Below are positions 3 to 27,802 of a DNA stretch of 30,391 nucleotides, in pieces; positions within the stretch are counted from its first letter, which is position 1, and the number at the start of each line of letters is the position of its first letter. Both the position numbers and the translations under genes were made by a program. A model generated the notes under the pieces. It was not told the origin of the DNA. It worked only from the letters and a program-made list of their open reading frames with translations, and ran no database searches. This stretch comes from a virus: positions 1-30,391 of IMG/VR virus record IMGVR_UViG_3300032053_000003. One strand, given 5' to 3'.

Positions 3-371
3 ATGAGTAAAGCCAGGTCTTTACTTTTAAAGGTTCAGGAAAGTAATAAGGTTTCCAATGAAGAAGTATATAGTATGGTTCAAAAGATACATAGGAACCA
101 TGATGACTTTGCTGAGGGTGATCTGGGAAAGAGGCTGGATAAGTATGATTATTATGAGCTGAAAGATATTGCTGTCTCTGATTTGGATTTGGATGAGTGG
201 GATGTAAAGGACTATCTGGTTGATAAGTTGATAGAGGAGATCAGAAAGAATCCCAGCTACCCACCTATTGTTGTTGGCAAAGACATGTCTATAATCGATG
301 GTATCCATAGAGCCAATGCTTTGAGTGAATTAGGACATAAGACAATAAAAGCTTATGTAGGGATTAAGTAA
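3..371 (+). CDS. ParB-like nuclease domain (ParBc/sulfiredoxin-like) mini-protein; N-terminus MSKARSLLL carries the shared MSKA-LLE-type motif
   Basis: C-terminal block PPIVVGKDMSIIDGIHRANALSELGHKTIKAYVG matches the ParB N-terminal nuclease-domain core (P-I-x-V ... IDG-HR-A ... LG ... I). ATG at 3. Stop TAA overlaps the next ATG (TAATG at 369-373). Confidence 0.6.
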   Translation: MSKARSLLLKVQESNKVSNEEVYSMVQKIHRNHDDFAEGDLGKRLDKYDYYELKDIAVSDLDLDEWDVKDYLVDKLIEEIRKNPSYPPIVVGKDMSIIDGIHRANALSELGHKTIKAYVGIK

Positions 372-2698
372 TGGATTTAACATCCATGAACATAAACCCT
401 AAGATCAAAAAAGCTTGTAAGAAGCTTTCCAAGCAAGAAGCAACTTACATGTTGTCTGATATAGAAGGCTACAGGGAGCCTTTAGTTGATATCAACCAGT
501 TCATAGAGGACCCTGAATATTTGGGTGGTATCCTGAAGGATGAGAACGGTAAGACCAAGCTGTTCTCAATATGGGTTGATGCTTTAAACAAAGTATTTCC
601 CAATCCTTATTATTCGCCGTACTACGAAGTGGCCTTTTCGGGGGCCATAGGAGGAGGGAAAAGCACAGTTGGCAGGATCATCCTGATCTACGATCTCTAC
701 AAGCTCCTGATGCTTAGGAATCCTTTTACCAAGTATCAGTTGATTGCCTCTGATGCTATTGTCATGGCTCTTCTGACAGCTAACTTGAACCTGGCTAAGT
801 TAGTACTTTACAGACCTTTTAAGGAGTTGATCAGGTCATCTCCTTTCTTTATGAAGCTATTGTTAAACAAGAGGAAGATTAATGAGGGGGGATCAATAGA
901 GTTTCCTAATAATATATCCATCCAGGCAGGTTCACGATTCACTCATGCCTTGGGTTTGGCAGTTTTTTGTTTGAAGGGTGATACAAGACTTCCTTTATTG
1001 GATGGTAGAATTAGAACAATTGAAGAAGTTGTAAAAGAATTTGAGACTAATAAGGACTTGTATACCTATTCTTTGGATATACAGACTAAATCAATAGTTC
1101 CTGGTAAGATTATTAAAGCAGTTAACAATGGTACCAGGTCTGTGTATCGTGTTCATTTTGATAATGGTAAATACATAGATGCCACTGACAATCATCCTAT
1201 TCTCATGAGGAACAATAAGTATAAAAAGGTTGAGGATTTGTCTATCGGTGATAGTGTTATGCCATTTGAAATGAGGATCAATGATGATGGTTATTATAAT
1301 ATAGTTAATCCTTATGATGGTATTGATAGACCTGTTCATAAGATTATCTATGAATATAAAAATGGTAGCATCCCTGTTGGGTATTCTGAGGGTTTGGTTC
1401 AGTCTCATAATCATAAAATTGTGAGTATAGAATATCTTGGTGAGTATGATGTTTTTGATCTTACAATAGATAAGTATCATAATTTTGCTTTAGATAGTGG
1501 TGTTGTAGTCCATAATAGTGGACTTCTTGATGAGGCTTCGTATCAACAGGAAGGAGAGTCTACTCACCAGGCTTATGATTCTTACATATCTATGTCAAGA
1601 CGTATGAAGTCCAGGTTTATGGAGATGGGTGGAGGGGTGCCTGGGCACCTGTGCTTAATATCTTCCAAGAAGGATGAGAATGCATTCCTTGAGGCTCATA
1701 TTATAGAGTGCAAGGATGATCCTCACTTCATTTGCTTTGAGTATCCTCTTTGGGAGGCTCATAAGGACAAAGGGATCTATTCGGGTGTAACCTTTACAGT
1801 GTTTGCTGGGTCTACTCTCCAGTCCCCCAGGATCATCGAGGATGGCAATATTACCAAGTATCCTAAGGACAAGATACTTAACGTACCTATTGAGTACCAG
1901 AGTGAGTTCAAGACTAATATAGAAAAGGCTCTGATGGACCTGGCTGGGACTGTAACGATCTCCAGCTCCAAGTACATTGCATTCCCTGAGAACCTTATGA
2001 AGGCTATCAGGATAGTCCACTGCTGCAATGTGACTGATCATATTATTCTGGACTTCTTCGATGACAAACGGATCATCGAATTTGTTGATGTACAGAAGCT
2101 TAAATTGTACCTTAACCTGCTGAGTAACTCCCCTCGGTACGTTCATATAGATATTGGTATCACTGATGACTCTTATGGTTTTGCCATGTCCTGTGTGTCA
2201 GGCATGAGAGAGGTCGAGAAGTTTGATGTGGAAGAGCTAATGGATAATCCTACAGGTACAGGTGTAGTGATGAGGGCTGAGCCTGTCATTCGTACTGAGC
2301 TGGCTTTGTCTATCAGGTCTACTACAAGAGTTCCATTGTGGAAGGTCAGGGACTTTATTGTGGATCTCACAGAGATGGGATTCCCAATTGTTAAAGTAAC
2401 TGCTGACTCTTTCCAGTCTGAGGATACCTTACAGCTCCTTACCAAGATGGGCTATGAGACTGATACCATCTCTCTGGATAAATCGAAAGATCCTCATCTC
2501 ACATTCAGGAATGCTCTTTATGAAGGTAGGTGTGAGCTTCCTGATTTCAAACTGATGATCAAAGAGTTCACTGACTTGATTGACAAAGGGAAGAAGTTTG
2601 ATCACAGCACTTCTGGGACAAAGGATATCACAGATGCTGTTGTAGGATCTCATTATACAGCTTTCCAAGCCAGTGGTTCGTTTATTGATATACAGTAG
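371..2698 (+). CDS. terL: Terminase large subunit (ATPase + nuclease), interrupted by an in-frame mini-intein
   Basis: Walker A FSGAIGGGKST. After removal of residues 200-382 the junction reads ...LGLAVF|SGLLDEAS, restoring a Walker B-like hhhhDE. Size and position (start of the structural module) fit a large terminase subunit. Confidence 0.75.
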   Translation: MDLTSMNINPKIKKACKKLSKQEATYMLSDIEGYREPLVDINQFIEDPEYLGGILKDENGKTKLFSIWVDALNKVFPNPYYSPYYEVAFSGAIGGGKSTVGRIILIYDLYKLLMLRNPFTKYQLIASDAIVMALLTANLNLAKLVLYRPFKELIRSSPFFMKLLLNKRKINEGGSIEFPNNISIQAGSRFTHALGLAVFCLKGDTRLPLLDGRIRTIEEVVKEFETNKDLYTYSLDIQTKSIVPGKIIKAVNNGTRSVYRVHFDNGKYIDATDNHPILMRNNKYKKVEDLSIGDSVMPFEMRINDDGYYNIVNPYDGIDRPVHKIIYEYKNGSIPVGYSEGLVQSHNHKIVSIEYLGEYDVFDLTIDKYHNFALDSGVVVHNSGLLDEASYQQEGESTHQAYDSYISMSRRMKSRFMEMGGGVPGHLCLISSKKDENAFLEAHIIECKDDPHFICFEYPLWEAHKDKGIYSGVTFTVFAGSTLQSPRIIEDGNITKYPKDKILNVPIEYQSEFKTNIEKALMDLAGTVTISSSKYIAFPENLMKAIRIVHCCNVTDHIILDFFDDKRIIEFVDVQKLKLYLNLLSNSPRYVHIDIGITDDSYGFAMSCVSGMREVEKFDVEELMDNPTGTGVVMRAEPVIRTELALSIRSTTRVPLWKVRDFIVDLTEMGFPIVKVTADSFQSEDTLQLLTKMGYETDTISLDKSKDPHLTFRNALYEGRCELPDFKLMIKEFTDLIDKGKKFDHSTSGTKDITDAVVGSHYTAFQASGSFIDIQ
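968..1516 (+). mobile_element. Mini-intein (183 aa, no endonuclease domain) inserted in terL at the Walker B motif
   Basis: Begins Cys (CLKGDTRLPLLDGRIRTIEEVV = block A). Block B TDNHPILM (TxxH). Ends ...YHNFALDSGVVVHN followed by Ser (+1 nucleophile). All in frame with the host ORF. Confidence 0.8.
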
Positions 2699-2707
2699 GA
2701 GGTTCAA

Positions 2708-26758: not shown

Positions 26759-27364
26759 ATGTCAAGAGAACCTAACATCCCTCCATTGGCTAATCGTTTA
26801 TTGGCTGCTTTACGTCAAAGTACTTTCGAGAAGAGGTCTGTACTTGAGCAAGGTGAAGAGGAAGTAGCAGCTCCTAATGCAGGAGATCTCAAGACTGCTC
26901 TGGATGAGTATGATTATGGCCTTTCCCTGGAGCTGGATCACAATGGTAGCAATCTATCTACTGGACCTGATGCAAGTACCGTCTTTGAGATCAACAATGA
27001 TCAGGGAGCTAATTGGATAGAGTTCCAGCTATGGGACAAGAACAGGTTTGACACTGCCATAGGGACTATCAGATATATCTGTGGGATGAAAGCCAATCCT
27101 GACTCTATTACAGTGTCTTCAGGTAAGGGTATAGAGAGGATCAAATTCAATAGTAAGGATGAAGAGATTGAAAACCTTGCTGATGTAAAGGACAAGGAAG
27201 ATTACAAGGATAAGATCCAGAGGATCAGAAGGATCTTTATGGGTTTCCAGTTGAACACAACAGGCATCGTTGGTATACCTAACGATCCTAAGAGCTTTGA
27301 GAGCATTGGTAGGAGAGTAGGCCAAGGTATCATCAAAGCTTGTACACCTTACCTGAAGGGATAA
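26759..27364 (+). CDS. Hypothetical protein (201 aa)
   Basis: SD GAGGAGG upstream. Its stop overlaps the next ATG (TAATG). Confidence 0.55.
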   Translation: MSREPNIPPLANRLLAALRQSTFEKRSVLEQGEEEVAAPNAGDLKTALDEYDYGLSLELDHNGSNLSTGPDASTVFEINNDQGANWIEFQLWDKNRFDTAIGTIRYICGMKANPDSITVSSGKGIERIKFNSKDEEIENLADVKDKEDYKDKIQRIRRIFMGFQLNTTGIVGIPNDPKSFESIGRRVGQGIIKACTPYLKG

Positions 27365-27573
27365 TGGCTTATAGAGTAATAGGTCATAGAGATGTAGGTA
27401 ATGTCTATACAGTCATCCAATCACATGCTTTATTTGAGCATGAAGTTGAGGGTGTGAAGAGGAGACTGGAGAGGGATGGATTCTCTGAGTTTGAGGTAAC
27501 AGATATGAGGATCTCTATCTGTATCTTCATTAGATGGTTCTTCCAATATTTGTTAGGAGGATGTCATGAGTAA
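27364..27573 (+). CDS. Small hypothetical protein (69 aa)
   Basis: Coupled start MAYRVIGHRD... Confidence 0.4.
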   Translation: MAYRVIGHRDVGNVYTVIQSHALFEHEVEGVKRRLERDGFSEFEVTDMRISICIFIRWFFQYLLGGCHE

Positions 27574-27802
27574 AGCAGAAGAGCTTCTGGAGCAGTTAAA
27601 TGCTGTTGAAGAGGAGAGTTTGGGTTGGCACATTGTGAAGACAGGTACCAATGACCAGCCAGGATCAGGTCCTTATGATACTCATAAGAAAGCCAGACAT
27701 GAAGCCCAGTTTAAGCACTGGTATTCTCCTGATGGATGGGATATTCGGTATGGGTATGTCAATGCTGAGGATCAGTTCGTAGAGTTGCCTAAACCTACTT
27801 AA
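27566..27802 (+). CDS. Small protein (78 aa) with N-terminal MSKAEELLE motif; last + strand gene before the convergent switch
   Basis: SD AGGAGG with a 5-nt spacer. Motif-family member. Confidence 0.55.
   Translation: MSKAEELLEQLNAVEEESLGWHIVKTGTNDQPGSGPYDTHKKARHEAQFKHWYSPDGWDIRYGYVNAEDQFVELPKPT

Follow-up and report, generated by a model that had tools for sequence, protein, structure and literature searches.

The stretch of viral DNA considered here (the window) comprises the 30,391 nucleotides at positions 1 to 30,391 of IMG/VR record IMGVR_UViG_3300032053_000003, and carries a series of genes whose otherwise unrelated products all start with the same short peptide. This leader, 9-13 residues long, heads ~14 genes of the phage, including one just upstream of the window, and is probably a helical peptide of the form M-[STGN]-[KR]-A-x-x-hydrophobic-hydrophobic that closes with Glu, in some cases after an additional turn. 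To judge from its sequence, it is likely to be a portable capsid-targeting leader of the type known from phage T4, as an earlier note on this DNA had proposed. Computational support for that proposal comes from the likeness of the leader to T4 N-termini, its association with loci encoding a Peptidase_S77 protease and a gp23-type capsid protein, its uniformity within each lineage, its position outside the cargo domains, and the presence of an ART-PolyVal protein among the cargo.

The window is 99.99-100% identical to part of a metagenomic contig (ENA ERZ27247916 k141_351042) of 230,776 bp, a length that makes the source a jumbo phage. About 50 kb of this genome was read, i.e., the window and 10 kb on each side (loci L001, upstream, and L004, downstream). 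The G+C content of the window is 39.9%, and its coding strand is the plus strand until 27.8 kb and the minus strand thereafter. Megablast of 25 kb of the window against cultured phages returned no match at the DNA level.

The leader at gene starts

The earlier note had listed eleven gene starts (3, 3751, 4294, 5710, 8985, 11634, 11836, 12140, 13741, 16493, and 27566) and an internal start at 17912; all do encode the peptides attributed to them, and a Shine-Dalgarno (SD) sequence lies upstream of nearly all 12. Members that had been overlooked are a gene with a TTG start at 6092, a leader-only relic at 4239-4280, and the upstream gene at L001:9025. The pattern M[STGN][KR][AS] occurs at 12 of the 55 gene N-termini of the window, against 0.23 expected from N-terminal composition (binomial P ~1e-17), and the full motif, with the hydrophobic pair and then Glu or Gln, at 11. 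When residues 2-20 were shuffled in 20,000 trials, matches averaged 0.036 per trial and did not exceed 2. The enrichment within the window is position-specific, as the earlier proposal implied: among 173 internal Met positions a single one matches, that of 17912, which has its own strong SD, and the minus strand of the window holds no full-motif match. One of the leaders reads MSKAEELLEQLNA over residues 1-13. Eleven of the 12 leaders contain a hydrophobic-x-Glu at positions 7-13, the P3 residue being L, F, V, or M, beyond the strict L or I of T4. No secretion-type hydrophobic core is found in the leader.

Could such a pattern be a by-product of translation-start optimization or N-terminal processing, through A-rich codons 2-3 and a small residue 2 suited to Met removal? 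MSK-type starts are common in bacteria, and 45 of 60 leaders have AAA or AGA as their third codon. Such an origin would explain neither the conserved Ala at position 4, the two hydrophobic residues at 7-8, and a Glu located at 9 or 12, nor the presence of the peptide in only about a quarter of the genes, its restriction to the surroundings of head modules, and the existence of lineage-specific leaders with quite different codons; it is thus highly improbable.

Within the leader, third codon positions vary almost without constraint (AGT, AGC, TCT, TCA, TCC, or TCG for Ser; GCA, GCT, GCC, or GCG for Ala), and DNA repeats between leaders extend over only ~24 nt at 75-79% identity. Selection therefore appears to act on the peptide and not on the DNA, and an explanation by a DNA-level repeat was rejected on the same figures. 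A variant of it, in which the leader region would be a recombination junction for cassette swapping and the peptide incidental, draws on the leader-only relics at window 4239-4280 and at ~9320 of the related locus L026, on the two-cassette fusion of ORF 17465-18268, and on the variability of cargo content between relatives. DNA identity that is so short and low, with third positions free, leaves this variant scarcely credible. Cassette exchange may be a consequence of the leader rather than its reason.

A leader separable from diverse cargo

The recognizable Pfam domains of the leader proteins begin at residues 17-20, just past the leader. Once the first 15 residues are removed, BLAST clustering distributes the 60 leader proteins of all loci into 52 clusters and the 12 window proteins into 12, with differing Pfam families, so that the earlier description of the proteins as otherwise unrelated holds. 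An exhaustive search with the DUF5662 protein encoded at 12140 returned 831 representative homologues, with likeness starting at query residues 17-21. Among the matches listed, standalone DUF5662 homologues begin at the domain and are devoid of this leader, a few having other leader-like N-termini; the leader is therefore an add-on. Many other DUF5662 copies are embedded in proteins of 800-2187 aa, which makes the domain a member of the repertoire of large multidomain proteins.

The genes of the large terminase (TerL, 371-2698, plus strand) and of the portal protein (6502-8838, plus strand) are located amid the leader genes. The latter are all co-oriented with these two head genes, eight of them within 4 kb of one or the other, and each encodes a protein of 69-217 aa with one recognizable domain at most. 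From the left end of the window, the first (3-371, MSKARSLLLKVQE/S, where the slash marks the putative cut) lies directly upstream of TerL and is ParB/Srx-like with a DGIHR motif; its hydrophobic-x-Glu is at residues 11-13 and its ParB-like PHROG hits are weak (best E 8.7e-6). The second (3751-4242, GTG start, MTKARILLE/D) encodes an ADP-ribosyltransferase of the ART-PolyVal family, its domain spanning residues 20-160. The match to Pfam PF18760 (E 1.5e-13, 52.2 bits for a cut-off of 31.2) substantiates the ADP-ribosyltransferase assignment of the earlier note. It is followed by the relic at 4239-4280, a 13-codon ORF (MTKAKTLISLLEK and a stop) with nothing behind the leader: its GTG start overlaps the stop of the ART gene, its stop codon overlaps with the SD that serves the following gene, and its peptide is almost that of the leader at 8985 (MTKAHKLISLLET). 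The third leader gene (4294-4515, MSKAQKVMSLLHE/Q) encodes 73 aa matching phrog_7884 over residues 18-61 (E 6e-9). The fourth (5710-6081, MSKAEEFLE/K) encodes a 123-aa orphan that matches neither Pfam nor PHROG. The portal gene is flanked by two genes for 135-aa orphans, directly upstream by the fifth (6092-6499, TTG start, MSRARDLLE/E), for which the gene call on the source contig also begins at 6092, and directly downstream by the sixth (8985-9392, MTKAHKLISLLE/T).

Further along the same strand, the seventh gene (11634-11843, MSKAKQVISMMGE/G) encodes a 69-aa orphan and the eighth (11836-12138, MTKAQQFLE/M) a second ParB/Srx-like protein, with a DGHHR motif and a phrog_1033 match at E 7e-4; the orthologue of the latter in the related locus L009 begins MGKALDLLNQ. 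The ParB-like nucleases of the earlier note keep this name on weak PHROG hits and visible DGxHR motifs only. The ninth (12140-12793, MTKSAFLMNLLE/D) carries the DUF5662 domain from residue 19 (Pfam E 5e-22), with leader-bearing orthologues in L009 and L010. This protein had been labelled HD-like, a label that has to be withdrawn, the HD families of Pfam giving no match. The tenth (13741-14217, MGKAQDLLE/R) comprises an acidic low-complexity region and then DUF5661 (Pfam E 1.2e-10), with leader-bearing orthologues in L010, L078, L079, and L068/L069. The eleventh (16493-16714, MNKAQELLQLVG) encodes a 73-aa orphan.

The twelfth unit (17912-18268, MSKAQLVKE/LFE/Q), a DUF7717 protein (Pfam E 1.3e-12), lies inside ORF 17465-18268. 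Its 118-aa product is a full-length match to PHROG families of 110-127 aa (E ~1e-14), and the ORF therefore looks like two joined cassettes, which could be a read-through fusion or reflect an internal start. The first half of this ORF may itself begin at 17504, with MELKDLLQKK. The thirteenth gene (27566-27802, MSKAEELLE/Q), the last on the plus strand before the switch, encodes a 78-aa orphan without Pfam or PHROG match. A further leader gene, just upstream of the window (L001:9025, MSRAKQFLEQ), encodes 125 aa. When the ART, DUF5662, and ParB-like proteins were compared with PDB sequences, no significant match was obtained.

To note, the sole difference between the window and the contig near gene 3-371 falls in codon 7 (~21-23; contig L001:9651), that of the first hydrophobic leader residue: the window encodes MSKARSLLL where the contig has MSKARSFLL, and either residue is seen there in other leaders. 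A chimeric 76-aa ORF (L001:9403-9633) immediately precedes window position 1. At its start it is a copy of the 5' portion of the terminase gene, with 85% nucleotide identity to window 384-561, and its end repeats the last residues (...QVRGALLEMIK, then the stop) of an upstream 191-aa gene, which is probably the small terminase. The ORF looks like a duplication scar, with a second leader gene placed between the two terminase genes. The leader gene copies at the scar are the ParB-like gene at window 3-371 and the gene at L001:9025-9402, which has no family match.

The terminase and portal genes

TerL matches Pfam MJ0330_N and Intein_splicing, and the portal protein also matches Intein_splicing. 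Tblastn of the portal identified the 'portal vertex protein of head' of Rhizobium phages (29% identity, E 9e-30), which makes these Kleczkowskaviridae the nearest cultured phages by portal; no Straboviridae record was among the hits. In the Kleczkowskaviridae Rhizobium phages, the genes of the terminase, portal, prohead protease, and major capsid protein (MCP) stand side by side.

Both head genes of the window contain an intein, at ~968-1516 in TerL and ~7561-8118 in the portal, as delineated by C...HN/S boundaries and Pfam Intein_splicing. The TerL inteins vary among relatives: none is present in P0001 and P0009, and larger ones in L009 and L078 also match LAGLIDADG (weak) or HNH domains.

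Relatives and lineage-specific leaders

A search with the spliced TerL extein yielded a graded series of relatives, and the TerL loci of four of them were read (L009, 80% identity; L078, 70%; L079, 64%; L010, 61%). They have the layout of the window and leader genes, with different cargo sets. In L010, the leader takes the form M-x-R-A, Arg replacing Lys, in four unrelated genes (MSRATDFMTL, MTRAQSVLGMLE, MNRADNMIRLLGDE, and MSRASKLLCEM). In the sister clade represented by L011 and L014, whose TerL is 41% identical, a Peptidase_S77 protease is encoded right after the portal, together with a Gp23-family capsid protein, and at least 8 genes around the protease carry another leader, of the MxLIxELNQLLE type (MKLIKELNQLLED, MNLINELNQILET, MGLIQEVNQLLEK, MIKELNKLLEEF, and MSLIQEIVQLAEE). 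In the jumbo contig L013, four genes beside the protease and capsid gene start with MKSLAxxILE.

The most direct comparison is provided by one orthologous small protein, containing KWHPPEGLFTKD, which bears a different leader in each lineage: MSLARELIDLIE in L066, MRLIDELYSLL in L014, MSKAKDYLDLTE in L079, and MSRATDFMTLTE in L010. The leader thus tracks the phage lineage and not the cargo. Its type varies between lineages yet is uniform over the unrelated genes of one genome.

A 61-aa gene at window 5275-5460 (GTG start), kept just before the portal in all clade relatives, begins MKEATKKLLEQL, and its versions in the relatives begin MKQSTKKLLEQL, MIKPSTQHLLDTL, MKESTKLLLVKL, and MKDEVRDMLLEL. 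Possibly, this is a form of the leader that has diverged within a core gene. In L013, from a 226-kb relative, the Gp23-family capsid gene (11723-13945) is in pieces, with ~1 kb of non-coding-looking sequence between them, and introns are a possible cause of this split.

Cultured phages with the same long protease-scaffold type amount to 18 records, some of which have similar N-termini. Such N-termini are carried by the cultured relatives RP13 and RHph_TM30 and by the E. coli phages vB_EcoM_IME392 and EP_H11, with sequences including MNKAQSFISKV, MTTAKDLLKKIEE, and MSRSSELLNKV. The Ralstonia phage RP13 has five. E. coli phage vB_EcoM_IME392 has, between its portal-like and protease-scaffold genes, an unannotated ORF (L080:11683) that begins MNKSELLMQAV (MNKSELLMQAVDES) and is a candidate leader protein in a tractable host.

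Association with T4-type head modules

A JGI metagenome scan with S77 patterns provided 63 loci centered on gp21-type (Peptidase_S77) proteases. Leaders of the window type were found at 44 gene starts in 20 of these loci, all on the protease strand, with 35 upstream and 9 downstream of the protease, mostly between portal and protease. As a control served 51 IMG/VR loci around distant terminase relatives (≤28% identity), which have neither S77 nor gp23. On the coding strand, the S77 loci contain 7.0 leader matches per 100 kb and the control 0.31, a 22-fold difference. Over all loci scanned, an SD precedes 59 of 63 window-type leader starts. L032 illustrates the arrangement: the portal is followed by ~10 leader genes, a conserved 258-aa protein, the protease, and the MCP. 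In L026, ~13 leader genes and a leader-only relic lie upstream of the protease-scaffold gene (9980-11386), whose product has a coiled-coil C-terminal half. The leader cargo of other loci includes HAD-like, methyltransferase, and AAA proteins. In most of the TerL relatives at 35-45% identity, S77 and gp23 lie no more than 10 kb away; two loci of this group that resemble the window (L094 and L097) have leaders and no protease within that distance.

The relic of L026 is the end (~9320) of ORF 9167-9376, which terminates with ...MTTAKDVLKLVEEIGSRG before its stop, a near-repeat of the leader of the gene at 8522 (MGLARDVLKLVEEIEKGG), and it mirrors the mini-ORF at window 4239.

These positions also bear on the idea that the peptide docks to a common partner outside the capsid, such as a chaperone, a host target, a membrane site, or a protease adaptor, for which the peptide would be a degron timing the degradation. 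A short, shared, amphipathic N-terminus could suit any protein-protein docking. The 22-fold S77/gp23 association and the placement between portal and protease would then be left unexplained, as would the likeness to experimentally defined T4 propeptides, and the leader lacks the hydrophobic core of secretion signals; docking to such a partner is accordingly quite improbable.

Proposed mechanism and its weighing

If the leader is a capsid-targeting peptide, the proteins carrying it would be produced alongside the head genes, and the leader would bind the scaffolding core of the forming prohead, thereby enclosing the cargo. A gp21-family (Peptidase_S77) protease would then cut after the Glu of hydrophobic-x-Glu and free the cargo inside the head, from where it would exit with the DNA at the next infection and act early on the host. 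The proposed cargo consists of the ADP-ribosyltransferase, the ParB/Srx-like proteins, the DUF5662 and DUF5661 proteins, and the orphans. Scaffold binding, cleavage, retention in the virion, ejection, and a role against host defenses are all inferred steps of this scheme. More tentatively, and with slightly less than even confidence, the leader could be one dialect of a general 'capsid-loading code' that co-evolves within each lineage and serves a large, mostly uncultured group of phages having a gp21-type protease fused to the scaffold.

The N-termini in the T4 record resemble the leader, from gp24 (MAKINELLRE), gp23 (MTIKTKAELLNKWKPLLE), gp22 (MLKEQLIAE), gp21 (MNEPQLLIE), and gp67 (MEGLIEAIKSNDL) to IPII (MKTYQEFIAE), whose ten residues are annotated in one record as the removed peptide. 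The similarity to gp67, gp22, and gp24 also suits a second form of prohead-core targeting, in which the leader proteins would be assembly or scaffold accessory proteins comparable to T4 gp67 and gp68, degraded or left behind, and not effectors. Rhizobium phage RHph_TM30 offers a further parallel, a protein annotated 'prohead core protein' that begins MSKSADLITKI; one leader gene is a conserved core gene of the neck region in many loci, and the acidic protein encoded at 13741 resembles T4 gp67 in composition. Array content that differs greatly between close relatives is, however, unexpected for essential assembly factors, and the cargo includes enzyme-family matches or motifs (ART-PolyVal and DGxHR here; HAD-like, methyltransferase, and AAA elsewhere) as well as DUF5662, found also within giant multidomain proteins. 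An accessory role is therefore unlikely. Each of the rivals considered fits some of the data; none covers the head-module association and the lineage-wide uniformity of the leader together.

Several observations weigh against targeting of effectors to the capsid. In the ~50 kb of this genome that was read, no S77 protease or gp23 gene is present, nor is one found within 10 kb of TerL in L009, L010, L078, and L079. Of the best 120 of 157 matches in a search seeded with the sister-clade protease, and of the best 120 of 260 in one seeded with the sister-clade MCP, none is a cluster located on the 230,776-bp contig or on the contigs of close relatives. The T4-type late promoter signal was not found, TATAAATA occurring 4 times for 2.3 expected. 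The leader at 16493 has no hydrophobic-x-Glu, the putative cut position differs among orthologues, and amphipathicity is just modestly higher than that of other N-termini (P = 0.018). Cultured relatives have few such leader genes, and the single-sequence AlphaFold model of the ART protein is too poor for use (pLDDT 41).

A profile built from 120 S77 proteases likewise matched nothing in the window, its two 10-kb flanks, L009, and L010, and the 246,837-bp relative (Ga0501914_00005) was not among the loci recovered from metagenomes by S77 patterns. The presence of a protease elsewhere in this genome is inferred from the sister clades, which have S77, and from the association of the leader with S77 in other loci. 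Two candidate leads were rejected: L028, from the same sample, has a G+C content of 49.7% for 39.9% in the window and stems from a different phage, and a protease cluster and a TerL cluster whose longest contigs both measure 5,359 bp are not shown to be linked, the contig with TerL having no recognizable protease. IMG/VR single-protein scans with the window TerL and with P0003 gave no matches, and an alignment-based scan recovered relatives of no more than 45% identity. Sigma-70-like promoters occur about as often as expected by chance, and terminators slightly more often.

Other features of the window

A second, unrelated shared N-terminus of ~30 residues, M-[AS]-L-G-K-F-D-G-x5-N-I-G-K...N-I-G-K-V-G-G, is encoded at 2708-2800, 10711-10800, and 14307-14396. 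The genes bearing it (2708-3472, 10711-11616, and 14307-15221) encode one LamG (Laminin_G_3) protein and two proteins with Kelch-like repeats of ~45 residues. Unlike the leader, this module is conserved in DNA too, as a 104-nt repeat with 61-72% identity that includes the SD, and it also heads several genes in L009 and L010. It is probably a common anchor that fixes fiber or decoration proteins to the virion.

Sugar-related genes form a block within 15287-21651, where Glycos_transf_2 and DUF3431 are matched weakly in Pfam and a 335-aa protein, encoded at 15287, has, by eye only, the look of a sugar kinase. Following the block, the protein encoded at 20989-21651 combines an apparent signal peptide (by eye) with fibronectin-type-III repeats. 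The block might be related to glycosylation of the virion or of the DNA. Further to the right, gene 23070-23480 encodes a GAAD-domain protein, matched to Pfam PF19976 on the source contig, and within 23070-24642 another protein, of 286 aa, matches phrog_6247 ('DNA topoisomerase', E 2e-57). An HNH-like endonuclease gene (12744-13373, by eye) overlaps the end of the DUF5662 gene, and a 113-aa ORF at 24658-24999 displays a LAGLIDADG-like motif, GIVDGEGTI (by eye). Mom-like and NADAR proteins are encoded just past the right end of the window (L004).

Novelty and implications

The principle of loading unrelated proteins by a common leader is already known from the T-even phages. What is new is a distinct consensus, its presence in a distant lineage, for the most part uncultured, with a 230-kb phage among its members, arrays of ~10-14 genes, and, as the domain assignments suggest, single-domain versions of polyvalent-protein domains as putative cargo. 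A description of this leader was not found in the literature searched, nor in the text of a 2021 comparative review of jumbo phages (PMC7824862). The earlier note had spoken of an unusually large arsenal; the array is large compared with T4 but not unique, L026 having ~13 leader genes and L032 ~10.

Injected proteins are hard to recognize outside the T-even phages. If the leader marks packaged cargo, such proteins could be recognized in uncultured phages by a simple rule based on sequence; among the loci sampled, ~60 proteins of 52 unrelated families, mostly orphans, are flagged in this way. Modular capsid loading would then be old and widespread in T4-type heads. Should the code reading be true as well, the 230-kb phage would load ~14 cargo proteins, several times the four of T4, injected arsenals could be read from metagenomes by the first dozen codons of their genes, and many cargo proteins would be single-domain counterparts of polyvalent effectors and candidate anti-defense factors. 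Foreign proteins could be given the short tag in attempts to load them into other phages, and the cultured relatives RP13, vB_EcoM_IME392, and RHph_TM30 make the idea directly testable.

Comparison with known systems

The closest parallel is the capsid targeting sequence (CTS) of T4. T4 Alt is an ADP-ribosyltransferase, Ip1-3 block type IV restriction enzymes, and injected proteins act before phage gene expression. Asp at P1 of T4 IPIII prevents processing and leaves targeting intact. The T4 internal proteins (IPs) are directed to the scaffolding core by propeptides of 10-19 residues that are cleaved off proteolytically; gp21 cuts its substrates after Glu; ten leader residues are enough for packaging foreign proteins; and the T-even internal proteins are varied and otherwise unrelated, with the leader alone in common (PMC9026906 section 2.6; PMC3012670; PMC12373910). 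The leader described here shares with the T4 CTS its nature, a short N-terminal peptide common to unrelated proteins, with a hydrophobic-x-Glu in 11 of the 12 window leaders, and its residue pattern, as seen when MKTYQEFIAE or gp24 MAKINELLRE is set beside MSKAEELLE. In both systems the genes sit among those of head morphogenesis, and an ADP-ribosyltransferase is part of the cargo, as Alt is in T4. In contrast to T4, the consensus has an invariant Lys or Arg at position 3 and Ala at position 4, and ~14 cargo genes are present instead of the four packaged proteins of T4 (IPI, IPII, IPIII, and Alt). The phage is only distantly T4-like, and the protease of related phages is 450-530 aa long and fused to a coiled-coil scaffold.

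The arrays also recall the hypervariable ip loci of T-even phages, where unrelated small genes are united by the leader alone and relics, fusions, and variable content are observed. New T-even ip genes have been recognized via their conserved leader, according to work cited in PMC12373910 (ref. 27) and PMC9026906 (ref. 69). Such loci are known only from Tequatrovirus and close relatives, with at least 10 reported, whereas the present arrays come from a separate, uncultured lineage with a different leader.

Polyvalent proteins, which occur in phages and in conjugative elements, offer another comparison. ART and DdrB-type ParB are among the hub domains of these proteins, which are presumed to enter the host together with phage DNA (Iyer et al. 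2017, PMC5512222). The ART-PolyVal and ParB-like domains (the latter weak here), the presence of DUF5662 in proteins of 800-2187 aa, and the proposed delivery with the incoming DNA are features in common. Polyvalent proteins gather 2-15 domains in one polypeptide, often fused to MuF or portal, whereas the window encodes separate small proteins with their own leaders. By their sequences, the window proteins are not polyvalent proteins; they may act like single domains of them.

In giant phages resembling phiKZ and SPN3US, ejection proteins are processed by a gp21-related protease at A/S/G-x-Glu (PMC5694885, PMC7411985). Many head-packaged proteins in a jumbo phage and a T4-related protease cutting after Glu make up the likeness to the scheme proposed here; these phages are of another lineage.

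Encapsulins are similar by functional analogy only, in that a short terminal peptide loads unrelated cargo. Their cargo-loading peptide is usually C-terminal, remains uncleaved, and binds the shell protein, bringing unrelated cargo into an HK97-fold shell. One leader-bearing cargo protein of a related locus is ferritin-like (EncFtn-like or rubrerythrin).

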